From an uncultured Akkermansia sp. (GTDB taxonomy: Bacteria > Verrucomicrobiota > Verrucomicrobiia > Verrucomicrobiales > DEV007), in assembly GCA_964562825.1 (NCBI GenBank), contig CAZLUZ010000018.1, positions 1 through 24,000 on the forward strand: DNA of 24,000 nucleotides, given 5' to 3'. The position numbers and the translations under genes are program-made. Shown here one piece after another: positions 6,639 through 14,277 of this stretch. Position 1 is the stretch's first letter; the number at the start of each line of letters is the position of its first letter. Below the pieces are notes generated by a model, which worked only from the letters and a program-made list of their open reading frames with translations, was not told the DNA's origin and searched no databases.

Positions 6639-7181
6639 TCAGGCGGACAAGGACTGCCGCTGCGCCGTTTCTCTCCGGAACTGAACCGTGGAAGGAGCGA
6701 GTCCGAACTCCTCATCGAGGACGATTCCCTCGCGCCGGCACATGATTGCGAGGATGGCGTAGTGATGCACCGCGTGGCTGAGGACGAACTGGAGTTCGCG
6801 CCCGATGGAGGAGTCCTGCCATTCGTCGGGATCATCCGAGGAAGCGTTGGACCGAACCCGGCAACGCATTCCGGGATCGATCCGGAGGCGGAGATCCTCG
6901 AGTAGTGCGATGGTTTCGTCGAAAGCTGCGATGGCGGCGACCAGCTTCGTCTCCACCACGATATCGCGTTCCCGGGCGTCGTAGTCGACGAGGTAGGGCG
7001 CCTCCATACCGGCGACAAGCCTCTGGTAGTGTTCGATGATGTGGCGGCAGTGGCCGCCGAAGGAGGCGCCGAGGAACTCGGCAGAGACGTGCGCGTACCG
7101 AGCTTGATCGATCCTCCGGAGCAGGGCCGAGGCCTGACCGAGACAGACGATGTTTGCCGCAAACAAATCGGGTCGGTTCAT
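6639..7181 (-). CDS. DinB-like (DinB_2 / four-helix-bundle metal-binding superfamily) protein
   Basis: About 180 aa with the His pattern of DinB-type bundles (GGHCRHIIEHYQ near the N-terminus, LSHAVHHYAILAIM near the C-terminus). Start is set at ATG 7181 (MNRPDLF...). It lies 33 nt upstream of the NRDE gene on the same strand. The family call is by eye only. Confidence 0.5.
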   Translation of the reverse strand: MNRPDLFAANIVCLGQASALLRRIDQARYAHVSAEFLGASFGGHCRHIIEHYQRLVAGMEAPYLVDYDARERDIVVETKLVAAIAAFDETIALLEDLRLRIDPGMRCRVRSNASSDDPDEWQDSSIGRELQFVLSHAVHHYAILAIMCRREGIVLDEEFGLAPSTVQFRRETAQRQSLSA

Positions 7182-7264
7182 GGTGCAAAAAATGCCACGG
7201 GGCGAATCTCCGCACACGGGCGGGTGTTGTCACCAGAAATTCTTTCCCCGGGTAGGTCCGATTG

Positions 7265-8044
7265 TCAGGGCAGATCGTCGATGCGCCGGATCCCCGTTTC
7301 TGGGTCGGTGGCGACGAATAGCAGGCTGCCACATCGGCTCACCTTTCCCGTCACCTCAACCGGTTCTGCGACGAGGTCCAGAATCTGTTCGTTGATCGCC
7401 TCGCCGTTGACGCCCGTCATGATGAGCTTGGTCACGCTGCCATCCTCGCCGCGGAGCAGCAGCATGGGCGGGACACCTCCCTTGATGCAGTGGATGGCGC
7501 AGGCGCGGTGCGGTTTGAGCACCCCGGGATTCATCACGCCGAGGTAGCATTTGCTGTCCACGATCTCGCCTCTGAGGGTCTGGGACCCGAAGTCCACGAA
7601 TTCGCCCAGACTGACATCGGCGGGCCGGGTCGATTTCTGCACCGATCCGTCGATCACCTCCAGCATGGCGTTTCCCCCATCGTGGATCAGCGTGCCTCTG
7701 AGGTCCACCGCCTCCAGGTGAAAGGTCTCCGCCACCTCGGGGTCGAAGCCGTACTTCAGCGGACGCACCAGGAGGAACACCGACTGTTGGCTATCGGGTT
7801 CCGGCTCCGGGGTGAGGAGCATGGGGACCGGGTTGGCGACGAGGACCCCGGAAAATTCGCGGACGTTGCCGAACTGGAACTGTCCGATGCCGAGAGTGCT
7901 CTGAAAGAGCGGGAATACCGCCGCGAGAAGCATTGCCGCCCCGAGAATGAGGCCGGTGCGCAGCCGGAGGAAGCCGGCGATACCCGGAGGGGGCGTTTTC
8001 TCCCAACCGATGAAAAATTCGGGTGCGTTCTTTTCTGTGCTCAT
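7265..8044 (-). CDS. Hypothetical membrane-anchored protein with an extracytoplasmic domain carrying a C-x16-C-x3-C motif
   Basis: The N-terminus has RLR followed by one hydrophobic helix (GLILGAAMLLAAVFPLF). The C-terminal part contains SKCYLGVMNPGVLKPHRACAIHCIKGGVPP and a fourth Cys (VSRCGS). No family was recognised. The start ATG 8044 overlaps the stop of the Rieske/FRD gene (ATGA at 8041-8044). Codon third positions are GC-rich. Confidence 0.6.
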   Translation of the reverse strand: MSTEKNAPEFFIGWEKTPPPGIAGFLRLRTGLILGAAMLLAAVFPLFQSTLGIGQFQFGNVREFSGVLVANPVPMLLTPEPEPDSQQSVFLLVRPLKYGFDPEVAETFHLEAVDLRGTLIHDGGNAMLEVIDGSVQKSTRPADVSLGEFVDFGSQTLRGEIVDSKCYLGVMNPGVLKPHRACAIHCIKGGVPPMLLLRGEDGSVTKLIMTGVNGEAINEQILDLVAEPVEVTGKVSRCGSLLFVATDPETGIRRIDDLP

Positions 8045-9075
8045 GAGATGCTTGCCGGTTCAATGGGGGTGCCCGCCGGATGCGGGGTGGGGTGGACATA
8101 AACCGTACCATTGGCGATACGGACGTCGAAAGTGGGAATTTTTTCGGTGAAAGGTGCCGGGGACGTTCCATCCTCGGGGCGATACTGATAACCATGCCAG
8201 GGGCAGGTCAGGCATCCGTGAATGAATTTTCCCTCGGCGAGGGGGCCATTCTGGTGCTGACAGACTCCCGAGACAGCCGAGACCTTTCCCTCGTACTTCA
8301 CCACCGCCACCTTCTCCCCGCCGAGCACCACTCCGTGGGCCGCGTTTTCCGGGATGTCGGCCACCGCGCAGACTTCGACGAATCCGTCCTCGGTGGGATG
8401 ATTCGCGAGGGGACGGTCCCGGGGAAACTCGCGAAATCCGGCGGTGAGGTGGAGGCCGGCGATGGCGAGGAAGCCCGCGATGAGCAGGCCGGTGTAGAGG
8501 GGGTGCGTCTCGGACTGGAGCACCCCGAAAGCGACGTGAACGACCAGCAGCGCATAGGCCACATACACACCCATGTGCAGCGATTTCCACACCGGTGCGG
8601 TCAGGTTGGCCAGCCAGAAATCATGGCTCGTCGCCGCCATGGTGAAGAGGATGAGGAGGGCGAAAAAGCCAAAGGCCTGGAAGGGGAAGGCGCTCATGGT
8701 TGCGCCCGCATCCGTCGTGAAAATGGTCAGGATGGGGTTCGAGTCCGATCCGACGTGGTAGGTGATGACGGCAAGGGCGGAGTGAAAGAAAGCCAGGAGG
8801 AACATGGTCACCCCGAGGTGGCGCCGATTGTAGAGGATGGGCAGCCACCTGCGGTCCAGCCGAGCCAGGGGCCCCACCATGAGGATGAAGTGCAGGAGGA
8901 TGATCGCGCCCGAACCGAAGGCGCGGATCAGCATGATCTCTATGGTGGCGGAGGGACTGATCGCGAGACTGATTCCGGTGAAGAGGGCGACGTAGAGGAT
9001 GGCGGCGACAGCCAGCCAGAGATCGAAGCGCAGCTTGAAGGGATTCCATCCCACGGCTTTGTAGGAAACACTCAT
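8041..9075 (-). CDS. Ferric-reductase-like six-TM (heme b type) domain fused to a C-terminal Rieske [2Fe-2S] domain
   Basis: Six hydrophobic helices, with paired His in helices 3 and 5 (RRHLGVTMFLLAFFH; HMGVYVAYALLVVH), as in the FRD/NOX/MsrQ family. The C-terminus carries both Rieske boxes: CQHQNGPL (about 8241-8265) and CPWHGYQY (about 8190-8213). Confidence 0.8.
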   Translation of the reverse strand: MSVSYKAVGWNPFKLRFDLWLAVAAILYVALFTGISLAISPSATIEIMLIRAFGSGAIILLHFILMVGPLARLDRRWLPILYNRRHLGVTMFLLAFFHSALAVITYHVGSDSNPILTIFTTDAGATMSAFPFQAFGFFALLILFTMAATSHDFWLANLTAPVWKSLHMGVYVAYALLVVHVAFGVLQSETHPLYTGLLIAGFLAIAGLHLTAGFREFPRDRPLANHPTEDGFVEVCAVADIPENAAHGVVLGGEKVAVVKYEGKVSAVSGVCQHQNGPLAEGKFIHGCLTCPWHGYQYRPEDGTSPAPFTEKIPTFDVRIANGTVYVHPTPHPAGTPIEPASIS

Positions 9076-9215
9076 GAGGGATCTTGAAGAGGGATGGGCA
9101 GATTCTGCGTGGGAAAGCGGGGCCGGTTCAGGATCGCGTAGCCGATCGCAAAGGCGATCACGATGGTGAGCACGAACCAGAGGGTGAGGTGTCTCTTGCG
9201 GTGGTAGCGTTGCAT
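9072..9215 (-). CDS. Small single-TM protein, 47 aa (not in the supplied ORF track)
   Basis: My own translation of the minus strand gives ATG at 9215 -> MQRYHRKRHLTLWFVLTIVIAFAIGYAILNRPRFPTQNLPIPLQDPS-stop. It has a basic N-terminus and one hydrophobic helix. It starts 4 nt after the stop of the 84-aa gene, and its TGA overlaps the ATG of the Rieske/FRD gene (ATGA at 9072-9075), so it exactly fills the gap. Confidence 0.45.
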   Translation of the reverse strand: MQRYHRKRHLTLWFVLTIVIAFAIGYAILNRPRFPTQNLPIPLQDPS

Positions 9216-9219
9216 GGGA

Positions 9220-9474
9220 TCAGGGTCTGGAATTCGCGATCCGACGGTGCCGAGACTTTTCCTCAGGGGGCGTTTCCCGGCTGACCCACCGTTTCAGGAG
9301 CAGAGGCCAGAAGATCGCCGCGCCGGGAATGATGATGAGTCGGAAGCTCCAGGTGCCCGACTTCGCCGATGGATCGATGGCGCCGGCTCCACCGAAGCAG
9401 GAGAAGACGATGGCGAAAAGCAAGCCGAGGAGCAGGTAGATGCCGAGGAGGGATAGAAAGATCTCAAGTAGCAT
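9220..9474 (-). CDS. Small two-TM membrane protein, 84 aa
   Basis: MLLEIFLSLLGIYLLLGLLFAIVFSCF... and ...FRLIIIPGAAIFWPLLLKRW form two hydrophobic helices. Start is set at ATG 9474, which overlaps the malic-enzyme 3' end by 11 nt. The longer track version (start 9600) would run about 135 nt into the malic enzyme gene. Confidence 0.55.
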   Translation of the reverse strand: MLLEIFLSLLGIYLLLGLLFAIVFSCFGGAGAIDPSAKSGTWSFRLIIIPGAAIFWPLLLKRWVSRETPPEEKSRHRRIANSRP

Positions 9475-10669
9475 GGTTCGAGGGAGTTTGCCCGCCATCG
9501 CCACTGGCGGCCTGACAGACGGCTCGGGCCACGATGGGAGCGATGGTGGAATCGAGCGGGGAGGGGACAATCCGTTCCGGAGACGGTTCCGCCACCGCAT
9601 CGGCCAGCGCGCGGGCCGCGGCGATCTTCATCTCGGGCGTGATGCGCGGCGCCTGGGCGTCGAGCGCGCCCCGAAAGATTCCGGGGAAGGCGAGCACGTT
9701 GTTCACCTGATTGGGGAAATCGCTGCGTCCGGTGCCGAGCACCGCGGCACCCCCGGCCCTGGCTGCTTCGGGCATGATTTCGGGGATCGGGTTGGCCATC
9801 GCCAGGATGATGGAATCCGGGGCCATCCGGCGGATATCTTCGGTGCGGAGGATGTCGCCTACGCTGACTCCGACGAAGACGTCAGCTTCGTGAAGCACCT
9901 CCGAAAGACTGCCTTTGCGGTTTGATGGGTTGGTGTACCCGAGGAGGTCGCGCTTCCGGGGGTTCAGGTCTTCCCGGTCGCGGTGGATGGCGCCCCGGCT
10001 GTCGCAGATGATCACGTCCGCCACGGGTGTGCAGGTGTCCGCAGACTGGTCGATGCATCGGAGCAGTTTCGCGATGGCGGTTCCGGCCGCGCCTGCTCCG
10101 TTGATGACCACCCTCAGATTTTCCACGGGTTTGCCCACGACCCGAGCCGCGTTGAGCATGGCGGCGAGGAGCACAATAGCGGTGCCGTGCTGGTCGTCGT
10201 GGAAGACCGGGATGCCCAGATCCTGGAGTCTCTCCTCCACCTCGAAGCACCGGGGTGCCGAGATATCCTCCAGGTTGATTCCGCCGAACACCGGCGCGAT
10301 CCGGCGAACCGTATCCACGACCTCATCGGCGTCCTGGGTGTCGAGGCAGATGGGAAAAGCGTCGATGTTGGCGTATTGCTTGAAAAGCAGGGCCTTCCCC
10401 TCCATCACCGGAATAGCCGCGTAAGGTCCGATGTTGCCCAGGCCGAGAACGGCCGAACCGTCACTGACCACGGCGACGGCATTTCGCTTGATCGTCAGAT
10501 CGCGCACCTTTTCGGGATGTCTCGCGATCTCCTCACAGGGCCTCGCCACCCCAGGGGTGTAGGCGATGGAGAGATCGTCGATGGTTTCGACGGGAAGTTT
10601 CGGAGTCACCGAGATTTTGCCTCGGAGCTGTTCGTGAATGAGCAGGGAGCGTTCGCCAAAATCCATCAT
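9464..10669 (-). CDS. NAD(P)-dependent malic enzyme (short prokaryotic form, oxaloacetate-decarboxylating malate dehydrogenase)
   Basis: Family-typical blocks run throughout: LSIAYTPGVARPC, VVSDGSAVLGLGNIGPYAAIPVMEGKALLFK, FGGINLEDISAPRCFEVE, VFHDDQHGTAIV, INGAGAAGTAI, LAMANPIPEI, NNVLAFPGIFRGALD. Confidence 0.93.
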   Translation of the reverse strand: MMDFGERSLLIHEQLRGKISVTPKLPVETIDDLSIAYTPGVARPCEEIARHPEKVRDLTIKRNAVAVVSDGSAVLGLGNIGPYAAIPVMEGKALLFKQYANIDAFPICLDTQDADEVVDTVRRIAPVFGGINLEDISAPRCFEVEERLQDLGIPVFHDDQHGTAIVLLAAMLNAARVVGKPVENLRVVINGAGAAGTAIAKLLRCIDQSADTCTPVADVIICDSRGAIHRDREDLNPRKRDLLGYTNPSNRKGSLSEVLHEADVFVGVSVGDILRTEDIRRMAPDSIILAMANPIPEIMPEAARAGGAAVLGTGRSDFPNQVNNVLAFPGIFRGALDAQAPRITPEMKIAAARALADAVAEPSPERIVPSPLDSTIAPIVARAVCQAASGDGGQTPSNHAT

Positions 10670-10684
10670 CTACAGAGTGCAAGG

Positions 10685-12664
10685 TTACACGAGGAGAGCA
10701 TCTGTCATCACCTCGATGGTGGCGGGGCCGGGATAGTCCCGGCAGACGGCGAGCGCCTCATCCAGCTGCTGGCGTTCCGAGACTCGAATCCCTTTACCGC
10801 CGCAGAGATTCACGTAGTCCGCAAAGTTCGGATTGTGCAGCCCGGTCTTCCAGACCTCGAAGTGTCCCGCCCGCTGTTCTTTCGAAATTTTGCCCAATTC
10901 ACCGTTGTGCATGAGGATGTGGGTAATGTTCATCCCGTATTTCACCGCGGTGAGGACTTCCATCATGTATTGGGCGAACCCGCCATCCCCGGTCACCGCC
11001 CAGACGGGTCGTCCGGCATAAGCGGGATCGTCCTCCTGGGTGGCGGCCCACGCGCCCATCGCCGCCGGGTATCCGAACCCGATCGATCCCAGGTAACCGG
11101 ACATGAGGACCGCCTGCCGGTCGCTGCTCTCGAAGTAGCGCCCGAAGGAGTAAGTGTTGTTGCCCACGTCGACGGCGATGATGGCATCCTCCTGGCACTG
11201 ACGGGTCATCGCGTCGAACAGGGCGGCGGCACTGATCCCTTTACCGGAGTCGTCGGGGATGCGGCTGGCCTTTTCCTTTCTCCAGATTTCCCAGCGACGG
11301 GCTACCTCCTCGCGTATCCCGGGACGCGGCACCGCGTTGGGAAAACGTTGCCCGAGGATGTCCAGGGTCCGGCCGATCTCCCCGAGAACGGGCAGATCGA
11401 CGGAGTGGAACTTGCCCAGTTGCATGGGATCGAAATCGATCTGAATCGTCGGCATGTAGCTGGCGATGCCGGTGTGGTTGGAAAAGGATGCGCCGATGGC
11501 GATGATGAGGTCGCACTCATTCATGAACCAGCTGGCGATCGGTGTCCCCGACCGTCCCAGAACGCCACAACCCAGCGGATGCGAATCCGAGATCAGGCCT
11601 TTTCCCTTGAAGGTGGTGAGCACAGGAATTTCGAGTCTTTCGGCGAACCGGATGATGGACTCCATGTGAAATCGTGCTCCGTGCCCTACGATGATGATGG
11701 GCCGTTGCGCCTCTCGGATGCGGTTTTCCGCCGCGGCTATGCTGGCCTCCGACGGGGCCACCGAGAGGTCGGCGAGGCGTCCGTCGGGGTGGCCGGGCTT
11801 GCCCTCCGTATTCTCGATTTCCTGAACCTCATTGGGGAGCACGAGGGTCACCGGGTTCCGGGTGAGGAGCGCGTTCTTGAGAGCCAGCGACATCAGTTCG
11901 CCGTGGCGGGAATCCGCGTAGACGGTGTGGTTGAAGGCCGAGACATCCTCGAAAGCGTTGGCCAGGTCGATCTCCTGGAAAGCCCCCGGTCCGAGCACCT
12001 GGGTGTCGATCTGTCCCGACAGCGCGAGGAGTGGCGCCCGATCCACTTTCGCGTCGTAAAGGCCGGTCATCAGGTTGGTTGCTCCGGGGCCCGCGATGGA
12101 GAAACAGGCGGCCGGTCTGCCGGTCAGTTTGGCGTAGGCGGAGCAGGCAAAGGATGCGGCTCCCTCGTGCCGGATGCCGTAAAACCGAAGGTTGCCCTGC
12201 TCCTCCTGGACCCGCAGCGCATCGGCCATGCCCAGGTTGGAGTGGCCCACCATGCCGAAGACCTGCCTGACCCCCCAATTCACCATGGTCTCGGCGAGGA
12301 CATCCGAGTTGGTCCGAGCCCTCTCGGGTTCCGGTTCCAGACCGACATAGATGCCGTCCTCCCGCTCCTCGACAGGATAGGTGATGAGACGGTCGTCGTG
12401 CCCGCCGGGCGACTGACCGGTGAGAGGATCAAAATCCCAACCGTGCCAGGGACAACGCAGCCAGCAACGACCCTCCGCCCCATCCTCGATCGAACCCTCG
12501 CCGAGCGGACCACCCTGGTGGGGGCAGGCGTTATCGAGCGCGCCGTACCGGCCCTGGTATTTGGAAAGGGCTATGGTGCGGGTGCCCGCGGAGATGGTGG
12601 TCACCCGTCTCTCCTCCAATCCGGGAGGGTCGAGGACTTTGTGCCAGACGAGTGCTTCGCTCAT
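10685..12664 (-). CDS. Rieske [2Fe-2S] domain fused to a thiamine-pyrophosphate enzyme of the pyruvate oxidase / acetolactate synthase superfamily
   Basis: N-terminal Rieske boxes CPHQGGPL (about 12504-12536) and CPWHGWDF (about 12431-12470). A three-domain TPP enzyme follows: Pyr domain VFGMVGHSNLGMADAL...IRHEGAASFACSAYAKLTG...GPGATNL, a middle domain IIIVGHGARF...TTFKGKG, and PP domain GSIGFGYPAAMGA...VTGDGGFAQYMMEVLTAVKYGMNITHILMHNGELGKI. The substrate is not deducible by eye. Confidence 0.85.
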   Translation of the reverse strand: MSEALVWHKVLDPPGLEERRVTTISAGTRTIALSKYQGRYGALDNACPHQGGPLGEGSIEDGAEGRCWLRCPWHGWDFDPLTGQSPGGHDDRLITYPVEEREDGIYVGLEPEPERARTNSDVLAETMVNWGVRQVFGMVGHSNLGMADALRVQEEQGNLRFYGIRHEGAASFACSAYAKLTGRPAACFSIAGPGATNLMTGLYDAKVDRAPLLALSGQIDTQVLGPGAFQEIDLANAFEDVSAFNHTVYADSRHGELMSLALKNALLTRNPVTLVLPNEVQEIENTEGKPGHPDGRLADLSVAPSEASIAAAENRIREAQRPIIIVGHGARFHMESIIRFAERLEIPVLTTFKGKGLISDSHPLGCGVLGRSGTPIASWFMNECDLIIAIGASFSNHTGIASYMPTIQIDFDPMQLGKFHSVDLPVLGEIGRTLDILGQRFPNAVPRPGIREEVARRWEIWRKEKASRIPDDSGKGISAAALFDAMTRQCQEDAIIAVDVGNNTYSFGRYFESSDRQAVLMSGYLGSIGFGYPAAMGAWAATQEDDPAYAGRPVWAVTGDGGFAQYMMEVLTAVKYGMNITHILMHNGELGKISKEQRAGHFEVWKTGLHNPNFADYVNLCGGKGIRVSERQQLDEALAVCRDYPGPATIEVMTDALLV

Positions 12665-12739
12665 GATGGGTAATGGGATGTCTTGGACACGCTCCGCCGA
12701 GGAAGCGCTCTTCCCGGTAGGCTTTCGGTAGAAGTCGGA

Positions 12740-13129
12740 TCAGGAAGGGTCCAATCGGGCAACCGCGAGAGGCGTGTTGAAACGCGTGCACCAGATCCAG
12801 ACCTCGTTGAACCTTGCGGGATCGAGGCCGGAAGGTAAAGCATAAGTCTGTTTCCCCGTGTTTTTCTCGAGTTTGCCGAGCCGGGATTTTTTGTCGTAGC
12901 CGTCCTTGCCGAGGGCGACGACCGGGGCAGGGGCGCCGTCGAAGAAGAAGTCTCCGGCGAAAGTCAACCGATAGGAACCGCTCTCCTCCTTCTCGATAGA
13001 GACGGTGCCACGGGCCTCGTGGTCGGAGCGGCCCTCCAAGTTCCCGGATCGGGTGTCCTGAGCAGAGCCGAATGACGTCGCGGCCAGAGCCGCGGTTGCG
13101 ATGATGGTGAGAAGGAGGGAGTTTTGCAT
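12740..13129 (-). CDS. Secreted DM13 domain protein (putative electron-transfer DM13 family)
   Basis: Signal-peptide-like N-terminus MQNSLLLTIIATAALAATSFGSAQD. The body matches the DM13 pattern (H..RG.V.I......Y.L.F...F....GP.. V.L, then LGKL....G.Q.Y.LP, then NEVWIWCTRFNTPLAVARL). Confidence 0.75.
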   Translation of the reverse strand: MQNSLLLTIIATAALAATSFGSAQDTRSGNLEGRSDHEARGTVSIEKEESGSYRLTFAGDFFFDGAPAPVVALGKDGYDKKSRLGKLEKNTGKQTYALPSGLDPARFNEVWIWCTRFNTPLAVARLDPS

Positions 13130-13164
13130 GGCGACGGTAAACGTCGCTTTCTCCCGGCCCTTCT

Positions 13165-14277
13165 TTACAGGGTTGCTGGAAAAATTTCTCCGCTTTCCTC
13201 GATTTCCTGGTGCAACCGGAGTTGGCCGCAGGCGGCATCGATGTCGTGTCCCTTCTCCCGGCGCAGGGTGGCGGGGATGCCCGCCTCTTTGAGGATGTCG
13301 AGGAATGCCTGTTGGACGCGGGGTTCCGGTCGATTCCAGGGCAGTCCCTCCACCGCGTTGTAGGGGATCAGGTTCACCTTGGCTTCCACCGCCCGGCAGC
13401 GGGATGCCAGGAGTCGGGCCTGCTCCGGCGCGTCATTGATGCCCTCGATAAGAATGTATTCGAAGGTGATCTTCTGCTTTCGCTTCGCCCGCCACACTTC
13501 GAGCGCGGCGAAGAGGCGTTCCAGGGGGTATTTTCGATTCACCGGCATGATGCGCTCCCGGACCTCGTCACTCGCCCCATGCAGCGAGACGGCCAGCCGG
13601 ACCTGGAGGGGGTTGTCGGCCAGTTTTTCGATCGCGGGGGCCAGCCCGCTGGTCGATATCGTCATGCGACGCGCCCCGATCTCCATTCCCCAGGGAGCGT
13701 TGAGAATCTCGAGAGCGCGAGAGAGGTTCTTCAGGTTGGCGAGCGGTTCTCCCATGCCCATGAACACGATGTTCTGCACCGATTCGCCACTTTCGGCTTC
13801 CACGGTGAGAACCTGGGACACGATCTCGGCGGTCGTGAGGTTGCGGGTCAGCCCGGCTAGTCCGGAGGCGCAGAATTTGCAGTCGAAGGCGCACCCCACC
13901 TGGCTCGAAACGCAGAGCGTGCGCCGGTCGCTCTTCTCGCCGAATAGTGCCTCGGAGGCCGGGATGAGAACGGTCTCGATGAGTCTTCCATCCCGGAGTC
14001 GGAAAAGGAATTTTCGGGTGGTGTCGCGGGACCCCACGACGCGCACGGTCTGGAGGTAGCCGACATCAAAGCGGTCCCCGAGCCATTTTCGAAGAGGGTG
14101 ACTCAGATTGGTCATCGCCCCGAACGCTCTGGCCCTCTTGCGGTAGATCCACTCGACGATCTGCCTGGCGCGGAAGGCCGGGTGACCCTCCGCCTGGAGT
14201 TGTTCCGTCCAGTCGTTCAGCGTGAGACCGGTCGCAGTCTGGCGGTTGGATTCGCTGGGGAGGGAGGAGGGCGGCAT
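13165..14277 (-). CDS. rlmN: 23S rRNA/tRNA (adenine-C2)-methyltransferase RlmN, radical SAM
   Basis: FRARQIVEWIY N-terminal domain, radical-SAM cluster CVSSQVGCAFDCKFCASG, FMGMGEPLAN, conserved C-terminal DIDAACGQL. The start may be ATG 14277 (MPPSS...) or the track start 14307. Confidence 0.93.
   Translation of the reverse strand: MPPSSLPSESNRQTATGLTLNDWTEQLQAEGHPAFRARQIVEWIYRKRARAFGAMTNLSHPLRKWLGDRFDVGYLQTVRVVGSRDTTRKFLFRLRDGRLIETVLIPASEALFGEKSDRRTLCVSSQVGCAFDCKFCASGLAGLTRNLTTAEIVSQVLTVEAESGESVQNIVFMGMGEPLANLKNLSRALEILNAPWGMEIGARRMTISTSGLAPAIEKLADNPLQVRLAVSLHGASDEVRERIMPVNRKYPLERLFAALEVWRAKRKQKITFEYILIEGINDAPEQARLLASRCRAVEAKVNLIPYNAVEGLPWNRPEPRVQQAFLDILKEAGIPATLRREKGHDIDAACGQLRLHQEIEESGEIFPATL

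Follow-up and report, generated by a model that had tools for sequence, protein, structure and literature searches.

A conserved fusion of a Rieske domain to a pyruvate oxidase-like thiamine pyrophosphate enzyme, with a putatively interchangeable electron carrier

The window analysed here is a 24,000 nt stretch of DNA from an uncultured Akkermansia sp. of the Verrucomicrobiota (positions 1 to 24,000 of contig CAZLUZ010000018.1, assembly GCA_964562825.1). Its minus strand carries a gene for a protein that we term RTPP, in which a Rieske [2Fe-2S] domain is fused to the N terminus of a thiamine pyrophosphate (TPP)-dependent enzyme of the superfamily that includes pyruvate oxidase (POX), PoxB and acetolactate synthase (ALS). 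The family to which it belongs is real, widely conserved and apparently unstudied; the POX-type scaffold itself is already known, and what is new is that an exchangeable iron-sulfur module, presumably an electron outlet, is built into a TPP enzyme of this type. The gene and its principal parts are as follows.

10685..12664, minus strand: whole RTPP gene (Rieske::TPP-enzyme fusion), 659 aa; open reading frame (ORF) with four Pfam domains and full-length conservation
12341..12646, minus strand: N-terminal Rieske [2Fe-2S] domain, residues 7-108, low-potential ferredoxin type by sequence; PF00355, PF13806, alignment with T4moC and RFESD, AlphaFold2 model
12518..12526, minus strand: Rieske box 1, C47-P-H49, putative cluster ligands; translation, invariance, alignment with the CPH of T4moC
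12443..12454, minus strand: Rieske box 2, C71-P-W-H74, putative cluster ligands; translation, invariance, alignment with the C-x-x-H of T4moC
11963..12310, minus strand: TPP_enzyme_N (Pyr) domain, residues 119-234; PF02776, E 1.2e-31
12164..12166, minus strand: E167, TPP-activating catalytic glutamate in IRHEGAASFA; aligned with RHEE of PoxB and RHEQ of AHAS
11360..11740, minus strand: TPP_enzyme_M (middle, dinucleotide-binding) domain, residues 309-435; PF00205, E 5e-34
10709..11170, minus strand: TPP_enzyme_C (PP) domain, residues 499-652; PF02775, E 2e-30
10904..10990, minus strand: TPP/Mg2+ motif G559-D-G ... N587; translation, conservation
10889..10891, minus strand: K592, at the position of E. 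coli PoxB F465, with E596 at the position of PoxB E469; alignment

The ORF list of the window gives RTPP as one uninterrupted frame. As the initial annotation had described, both Rieske boxes lie in the N-terminal part of this frame, CPHQGGPL starting at residue 47 of the translation and CPWHGWDF at residue 71, and a complete three-domain TPP enzyme follows, the Pfam models TPP_enzyme_N, M and C all being matched; the context of the catalytic glutamate, IRHEGAASFA (from residue 164), and the GDGG...N motif (from residue 559, with N587 lying 27 residues past D560) were likewise found as claimed. RTPP therefore has what defines the POX/ALS-type superfamily, namely all three domains, the catalytic glutamate and a GDG-x(25-30)-N motif. 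The Rieske match to PF00355 covers residues 7-84 (E 1.8e-13, 50.6 bits against a cutoff of 20.3), and that to Rieske_2, PF13806, residues 7-107. Within the TPP_enzyme_N domain fall an FQE motif (229-231) and H141-S142-N143, which is specific to the family and invariant across 238 members with cores approximately 60-80% identical. The chain stops seven residues past the TPP_enzyme_C domain, and there is no C-terminal tail. AlphaFold2 returned one compact model (mean pLDDT 94.1, pTM 0.92) in which the linker residues are also confident and the Rieske domain, with pLDDT values of 80-96, is rich in beta strand. Base composition around the gene is unremarkable. An antisense open frame of 896 aa at 9983-12673 on the plus strand, running over both RTPP and the adjacent malic enzyme gene, is an unsupported artefact of high GC content, able to displace the real RTPP gene when the longest ORF is called naively.

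The fusion is found far beyond this genome. Nearly all of the 120 best protein clusters (62-80% identity) combine a Rieske domain and the three TPP domains in one protein of approximately 650-670 aa, and in a scan of one genome per prokaryotic species at least 582 stretches, from many phyla, encode the full-length fusion. The locus-level counts below rest on the best 80 of these at least 582 stretches, all full length and 59-80% identical. They come from the Verrucomicrobiota, Nitrospirota, Acidobacteriota, Gemmatimonadota, Myxococcota, Planctomycetota and Poribacteria, from the Trueperaceae, Rhodothermales, Ignavibacteria, KSB1 and Omnitrophota, and from many marine or sponge-associated Alpha- and Gammaproteobacteria. 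The distribution is patchy: the fusion is absent from 24 other species of the same genus, and in 40 relatives, those 24 among them, only an ordinary ALS paralogue of approximately 32% identity was detected, with no second copy of the fusion. A phylum sample of 301 genomes contains family members in this genome and in one other only, the latter being a rubredoxin form from Pontiella.

Residues 1-115 of RTPP match soluble Rieske proteins of solved structure, namely mouse RFESD (3D89), the toluene-4-monooxygenase ferredoxin T4moC and the ferredoxins of carbazole and naphthalene dioxygenases. A phmmer comparison with solved Rieske ferredoxins places CPHQ and CPWH of RTPP opposite the two ligand boxes of T4moC (CPHQ and C..H), and both also align with the boxes of RFESD. 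The putative ligands C47, H49, C71 and H74, on whose correspondence to known Rieske ligands the initial annotation had staked its claim, line up with these boxes and are invariant in 16 diverse RTPP homologues, in which mean column identity is 74%. The extra disulfide cysteine pair of the bc1/b6f Rieske proteins (C-x-H-x-G-C ... C-x-C-H) is absent from the RTPP boxes, CPHQGG and CPWHGW, and hence the domain is, by sequence, of the low-potential, ferredoxin-like soluble type. It resembles RFESD and the Rieske ferredoxins of oxygenase systems (T4moC, 1VM9; carbazole CarAc, 1VCK; BphF-type) in being a domain of approximately 100 aa with a CPH...C-x-x-H arrangement and no stabilising disulfide. 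However, whereas the Rieske ferredoxins are free shuttles between an NADH reductase and an oxygenase, the domain in RTPP is covalently joined to its presumed reductase, a TPP flavoenzyme.

Among curated models, the best match to RTPP is the pyruvate oxidase PRK08611, at 379.6 bits against a cutoff of 742, followed by the models for archaeal-type pyruvate dehydrogenase, ALS and PoxB, and RTPP reaches the cutoff of none of them; P0172, a bona fide POX, scores 956 bits on PRK08611. The scores are 271.6 bits for PoxB (NF006591, cutoff 792), 281.6 bits for POX (TIGR02720, cutoff 637.85) and 290.9 bits for ALS/AHAS (TIGR00118, cutoff 538.35). Among solved structures, the best sequence match is E. 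coli PoxB (3EY9; E 4e-61), with residues 120-653 of RTPP aligned to 6-526 of its 572, and the best fold match is the POX of L. plantarum (4FEE/1POX; Foldseek E 2e-46, target TM 0.85). A quick-search maximum likelihood tree was constructed from 84 cores over 528 columns, with E. coli PoxB, IlvB, IlvI, Gcl and oxalyl-CoA decarboxylase (Oxc), and the ALS of this genome, encoded on contig C45, included. In this tree the Rieske forms make up one clade (support 96, from the Shimodaira-Hasegawa-like approximate likelihood ratio test, SH-aLRT), with two rubredoxin-fused enzymes as its sister group (support 100). Together these fall in a large branch (support 85) shared with PoxB and P0172; they are separate from the PoxB/POX clade (support 99) and from ALS/Gcl (support 98). 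Hence the phylogeny proposed alongside the initial annotation groups the RTPP core with the oxidative POX/PoxB branch and not with ALS.

The catalytic glutamate E167, the FQE motif and the GDG...N motif (559-587) are common to RTPP and to PoxB, POX and ALS. The glutamate is present in 237 of the 238 family members, and G559, D560, G561 and N587 are invariant. At position 596 RTPP keeps the glutamate of the POX/PoxB type (PoxB E469), where ALS has a tryptophan; this tryptophan, from the LGMV-x-Q-W motif of ALS, does not occur in RTPP, and RFDDR is replaced by SFSNH. The middle domain contains the loops G327-x-G329, TTFKGKG (350-356), GVLGRSG (367-373) and Q408-x-D410. Its G-x-G, GxxGxxG and Q-x-D loops align with those of PoxB, AHAS and Gcl, which bind flavin adenine dinucleotide (FAD), whilst the GxxGxxG loop is deleted in the FAD-free Oxc; the alignment thus retains the pattern of the FAD binders, a feature for which a check had been suggested. 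PoxB F465 aligns with K592 of RTPP, and both this lysine and E596 are found in all 238 members. F465, like F479 of L. plantarum, lies on the path from TPP to FAD. Further residues invariant in the family are H141-S142, K353, K355, H397, Y505, Q597 and W605. Every one of the 238 members ends two residues past the core, where PoxB has 42 more, which make up its lipid-binding, activating tail. These shared and differing residues, in comparison with PoxB, POX and ALS, place RTPP at the sequence level in a subfamily of its own, in which the scaffold is POX-like, a flavin site is probable, the active site is altered and a membrane anchor is lacking.

To collect the nearest relatives of the core, 1.84 billion cluster representatives were searched exhaustively with HMMER and Pfam scans were then run; these relatives differ in what precedes the TPP domains. 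Rubredoxin occupies the N terminus of P0127, P0130, P0138, P0141 and P0152, and Pontiella agarivorans P0271, publicly annotated only as a 'thiamine pyrophosphate-dependent enzyme', has a core 59% identical to that of RTPP with two rubredoxin-like domains instead of the Rieske domain. P0271 resembles RTPP in having the invariant residues H141, K353, K355, H397, Y505, K592 and E596 and the same C-terminal end; rubredoxin forms in general differ in bearing one or two rubredoxin-like domains in place of the Rieske domain, and in usually lying beside genes for rubrerythrin and a Fur-family regulator. P0123, of 873 aa, has a Fer4_19 domain, two CDGSH [2Fe-2S] domains and a Rieske domain ahead of the TPP core, an arrangement that would string four Fe-S centres together on a single enzyme. 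P0302, an 889 aa protein from a metagenome contig, joins an FrdB-like Fer2_3+Fer4_8 module and a rubredoxin-like domain to the same core, and its gene directly follows genes for an FrdA-like flavoprotein and rubrerythrin; it looks like a hard-wired 2-oxoacid:fumarate-type oxidoreductase.

Amongst the 238 members, 155 carry a Rieske domain, 50 a rubredoxin-type domain, 20 both and 13 no recognised carrier, the last of which may include bad gene starts. A FastTree phylogeny of their cores requires at least 11 changes in the presence of Rieske and at least 13 in that of rubredoxin. The cores stay approximately 60-70% identical as the carrier switches between Rieske, rubredoxin, both, CDGSH with Fer4_19, and FrdB-like modules. 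To judge from these sequences, the N-terminal module behaves as an interchangeable one-electron carrier. Such swapping on a constant catalytic core is the behaviour to be expected of an electron outlet, and not of an appendage with a structural or sensory role.

This sets RTPP apart from the systems that it most resembles. With PoxB (3EY9/3EYA) and the PQO of C. glutamicum (9EV3-9EV6) it shares the three-domain TPP fold, the catalytic glutamate, the GDG...N and FQE motifs, the dinucleotide loops, the glutamate at PoxB position 469 and the same major branch of the tree, and presumably also oxidative decarboxylation with an acceptor other than O2. However, RTPP is only approximately 27% identical to PoxB, is placed outside the PoxB/POX clade, lacks the 42-residue tail and has lysine for F465, and an N-terminal Rieske domain is not known from any PoxB or PQO characterised so far. 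The POX enzymes of L. plantarum and Aerococcus (1POX, 4FEE, 1V5E; PRK08611, TIGR02720) provide the best fold and the best curated match, and are presumed to have TPP- and FAD-dependent oxidative chemistry in common with RTPP. Unlike them, RTPP scores below the cutoffs, has no C-terminal extension and has lysine where both P0172 and PoxB have phenylalanine, and its electrons would presumably pass to an internal Fe-S centre rather than to O2. The outline is also that of PFOR/OFOR, in which TPP-dependent oxidative decarboxylation of a 2-oxo acid sends electrons through built-in Fe-S centres to a one-electron protein acceptor; PFOR, however, has an unrelated architecture with [4Fe-4S] clusters next to TPP, contains no flavin and depends on CoA. 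POX passes electrons to O2 and PoxB to membrane quinone. To our knowledge, the redox enzymes of the POX/PoxB/ALS superfamily characterised so far deliver electrons via flavin to O2 or quinone, and none has an iron-sulfur domain. No paper describing a POX/ALS-family enzyme fused to Rieske or rubredoxin came up in full-text literature searches, and public annotations of RTPP homologues read only 'thiamine pyrophosphate-binding protein', 'pyruvate oxidase' or 'Rieske 2Fe-2S domain-containing protein'.

The genes surrounding RTPP lie on the same strand, and in the direction of transcription the order is DM13, RTPP, malic enzyme, a small membrane ORF, a 47-aa ORF, FRD-R and p259.

12740-13129, minus strand: secreted DM13 ('electron transfer DM13') protein, 75 nt upstream of RTPP
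9464..10669, minus strand: malic enzyme, 401 aa, PF00390 and PF03949, 15 nt after the RTPP stop
9220-9600, minus strand: small membrane ORF, overlapping malic enzyme as listed; recurs in 9 loci
9072-9215, minus strand: 47-aa small membrane ORF; recurs in 4 loci
8041..9075, minus strand: FRD-R, ferric-reductase-type transmembrane domain (di-haem b) with a C-terminal Rieske domain, PF01794 and PF00355; candidate acceptor
7265..8044, minus strand: p259, 259-aa membrane-anchored protein, the start of which overlaps the FRD-R stop

Four related Verrucomicrobiota loci keep the order TPP enzyme, small ORF, FRD-R and p259, two of them with the malic enzyme as well (L013 and L014, where it has the same position); the malic enzyme is a possible source of pyruvate within the operon. 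Homologues of the ORF at 9220-9600 are approximately 77 aa long, indicating that its true start is probably farther downstream. A DM13 homologue is found near RTPP in only two of the other 80 loci, and the link between the two is weak. Predicted promoters and terminators at 6800-13400 were no more numerous than in shuffled sequences. The six-helix domain of FRD-R is MsrQ/NOX-like and has invariant histidine residues. The protein p259 has one N-terminal helix and, in its family alignment, an invariant C166-x12-H179-x2-C182-x3-C186 motif; its AlphaFold2 model is mostly beta (pLDDT 83), searches found no Pfam family and no named Atlas cluster, and its matches in the Protein Data Bank were insignificant and tandem-OB-like (TM <0.3). 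On the basis of its conserved residues it may be a metal-site protein.

Clustering of the ORFs within 6 kb of RTPP over the 80 loci shows which neighbours recur. The commonest is a protein of approximately 540 aa with an N-terminal Rieske domain and the flavin mononucleotide (FMN) domain of glutamate synthase, termed here Rieske-GltS-like, which is found in 30 loci, often overlapping RTPP or less than 50 nt away; all 30 copies have both the Rieske motif and a C-x5-C-x4-C 3Fe-4S motif. FRD-R is near RTPP in 15 loci from several phyla, and is followed by p259 in 13. A DUF5996-like protein of 289 aa, for which DUF5996 was the only lead from the ESM Atlas, lies beside RTPP in 11 loci, again from several phyla (e.g. 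L018:5019-5888:+), and a gene of the Na+/H+-exchanger family is found in 10. In ten further RTPP genomes where the genes are not adjacent, Rieske-GltS-like is encoded elsewhere in seven and FRD-R in six. This genome has its own Rieske-GltS-like FMN/3Fe-4S protein of 538 aa (C452-x5-C458-x4-C463), encoded among unrelated genes at G000:C25:17635-19248 (L101:11636-13252:+), together with a separate POR-type enzyme, also on contig C25, and an acetate kinase. Only four genomes of the 301-genome sample contain FRD-R, and all four have a GltS-like match of high identity, which is clearly full length and includes the Rieske domain in two genomes and is partial in the other two; the FRD-R and Rieske-GltS-like genes are adjacent in two of the four.

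Rubredoxin forms have neighbours of another kind. Of 11 loci examined, six encode rubrerythrin directly beside the TPP gene, in some cases together with a Fur-family regulator; several of the loci may belong to related lineages, such that six of 11 is not a statistic. In two of the 11 the gene adjoins a rubredoxin-fused GltS-like gene. The order in Pontiella agarivorans (L106:4250-8604; G140:C7) is rubrerythrin, Fur-family regulator, rubredoxin-fused GltS-like enzyme and double-rubredoxin-fused TPP enzyme. Both the TPP and the GltS-like enzyme have thus switched to rubredoxin-type carriers in Pontiella and at one metagenome locus, with a peroxide reductase adjacent in Pontiella. The loci of P0127, P0141, P0305, P0306, P0365 and P0301 had no informative neighbours.

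Taken together, we consider it somewhat probable that RTPP is a soluble, cytoplasmic 2-oxoacid dehydrogenase of the POX/PoxB type, most likely acting on pyruvate, with a built-in one-electron Rieske outlet to a dedicated protein acceptor. That such a carrier would wire the enzyme to a protein rather than to O2 or quinone had been suggested in the initial annotation, and four independent comparative results support the suggestion, since the core groups with the POX/PoxB branch and keeps E596 and the FAD-loop pattern, the lipid-binding tail of PoxB is missing from all 238 members, the N-terminal module swaps among one-electron carriers, and the neighbours use the matching type of carrier (rubredoxin with rubrerythrin; Rieske with FRD-R or GltS-like).

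From homology and context we infer FAD binding, substrate, product, direction of flow and acceptor along the following lines. Pyruvate would be formed from malate by the malic enzyme, the gene for which lies 15 nt after the RTPP stop. TPP, activated by E167 and anchored by GDG...N587, would decarboxylate the 2-oxo acid to leave a hydroxyalkyl-TPP carbanion, two electrons from which would pass to the flavin of the middle domain and exit singly via the fused low-potential Rieske [2Fe-2S] domain. The acyl group would be released as either the acid or the acyl-phosphate. The Rieske domain would stand in for both the O2 outlet of POX and the membrane-quinone outlet that PoxB reaches via its C-terminal tail. 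The best candidate acceptor in this genome is the co-operonic FRD-R, which might receive electrons via its own Rieske domain and haems and move them across the membrane toward p259. A modelled complex of full-length FRD-R with the RTPP Rieske domain (residues 1-115), two haems and two [2Fe-2S] clusters gave a score of 0.00, which is no answer and counts neither for nor against binding. Low-potential Rieske centres lie at approximately -150 mV in characterised ferredoxins. Operation in reverse, in the manner of a pyruvate synthase, was rejected, as such a centre is far too positive to drive 2-oxoacid synthesis; thermodynamically, a 2-oxoacid enzyme linked to a Rieske centre makes sense only in the oxidative direction.

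Several observations weigh against this assignment. RTPP falls below every curated POX, PoxB and ALS cutoff, and the active site, because an invariant lysine takes the place of PoxB F465, is by alignment not that of a standard pyruvate oxidase. Evidence for the putative FAD binding by the middle domain consists of the loop conservation in the alignment. None of the recurrent partner genes is within 6 kb in 50 of the 80 loci, and the link to pyruvate through malic enzyme is limited to three closely related Verrucomicrobiota loci. In the 301-genome sample FRD-R tracks Rieske-GltS-like (four of four genomes) rather than RTPP (one of four, this genome), and RTPP is therefore an optional member of the GltS-like/FRD-R set.

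The same oxidative mechanism might instead serve a 2-oxo acid other than pyruvate, for example 2-oxoglutarate supplied by the Rieske-GltS-like enzyme, in a pathway from amino acid to 2-oxo acid to acid. This GltS-like protein, with its FMN and C-x5-C-x4-C 3Fe-4S features, is the commonest neighbour of RTPP, is encoded elsewhere in seven of the ten further genomes and on contig C25 here, and switches to rubredoxin together with the RTPP-type enzyme in Pontiella and at the one metagenome locus; moreover, the family-invariant basic residues H141, K592 and K595, near active-site motifs, could bind a second carboxylate. Nevertheless, the best sequence and fold matches of RTPP are all pyruvate enzymes, the only metabolic neighbour in the window is a malic enzyme, which makes pyruvate, and the alternative leans on a GltS-like protein whose own substrate has no assignment. 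We therefore regard a different substrate as unlikely.

A role for the GltS-like enzyme as recipient is less likely again. RTPP would then donate electrons to it by Rieske-to-Rieske transfer, and its FMN/3Fe-4S domains would carry out a reductive amination driven by a 2-oxo acid, requiring neither NAD(P)H nor ferredoxin. The corresponding domains of canonical glutamate synthase do run reductively, and both the adjacency of the genes and the parallel switch of carrier in the two enzymes are as such a partnership would have it. In this genome, however, the GltS-like gene is surrounded by unrelated genes on a different contig, and it is FRD-R that lies in the RTPP operon, whilst rubredoxin forms adjoin the terminal acceptor rubrerythrin also at loci that have no GltS-like gene close by.

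It is more doubtful still that the TPP core is non-oxidative, with the Rieske domain sensing redox state, O2 or iron in order to switch its activity. Such a core would catalyse carboligation or decarboxylation, its flavin being vestigial in the manner of acetolactate synthase. ALS-family enzymes keep an FAD that they do not use, and both the lysine in place of the electron-path phenylalanine of PoxB and POX and the missed POX and PoxB cutoffs could be read in this way; yet the core branches with POX/PoxB and not with ALS/Gcl, residue 596 is glutamate and not the tryptophan of ALS, the module is exchanged for rubredoxin, CDGSH and FrdB-like domains that are themselves electron-transfer domains, and the neighbours are electron acceptors of the matching carrier type. 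Finally, that RTPP is an assembly or annotation artefact joining two genes through a missed stop or frameshift, the outcome that would have undone the initial annotation, can be practically dismissed: nothing was found in its favour, the frame is single and open, the cluster survey and species-genome scan recover a protein of this architecture and length from hundreds of assemblies made independently (at least 582 species genomes, at 60-80% identity) in many phyla, and the single-chain model is confident.

Reading RTPP as an oxidative enzyme with a protein acceptor leads to a broader and more tentative suggestion, which we think possible rather than probable. RTPP may be one input module of an electron-transfer system that uses neither pyridine nucleotides nor quinone, in which carrier-bearing dehydrogenases (RTPP and the GltS-like enzyme) feed a dedicated terminal module. 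In aerobes this would be FRD-R with its Cys/His partner, directing electrons outward to an extracytoplasmic reductive task, and in anaerobes the rubredoxin-bearing versions of both enzymes would reduce rubrerythrin, the common role being 2-oxoacid-powered oxidant defence or repair.

The core is unusually conserved, at 60-80% identity across phyla, whilst its carrier is exchangeable among Rieske, rubredoxin, CDGSH and FrdB-like types, and a soluble, single-chain protein of this kind should be easy to express and assay. If our reading of RTPP is true, it would constitute a third electron exit for POX/PoxB chemistry, present in at least 582 species genomes of many phyla, and would couple the oxidation of 2-oxo acids directly to acceptor proteins, for example rubrerythrin, a fumarate-reductase-like flavoprotein or a transmembrane di-haem protein. 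It would also offer testable answers to two questions: the source of electrons for rubrerythrin-type peroxidases in some anaerobes, and what feeds the unstudied Rieske-fused MsrQ/NOX-like membrane proteins.

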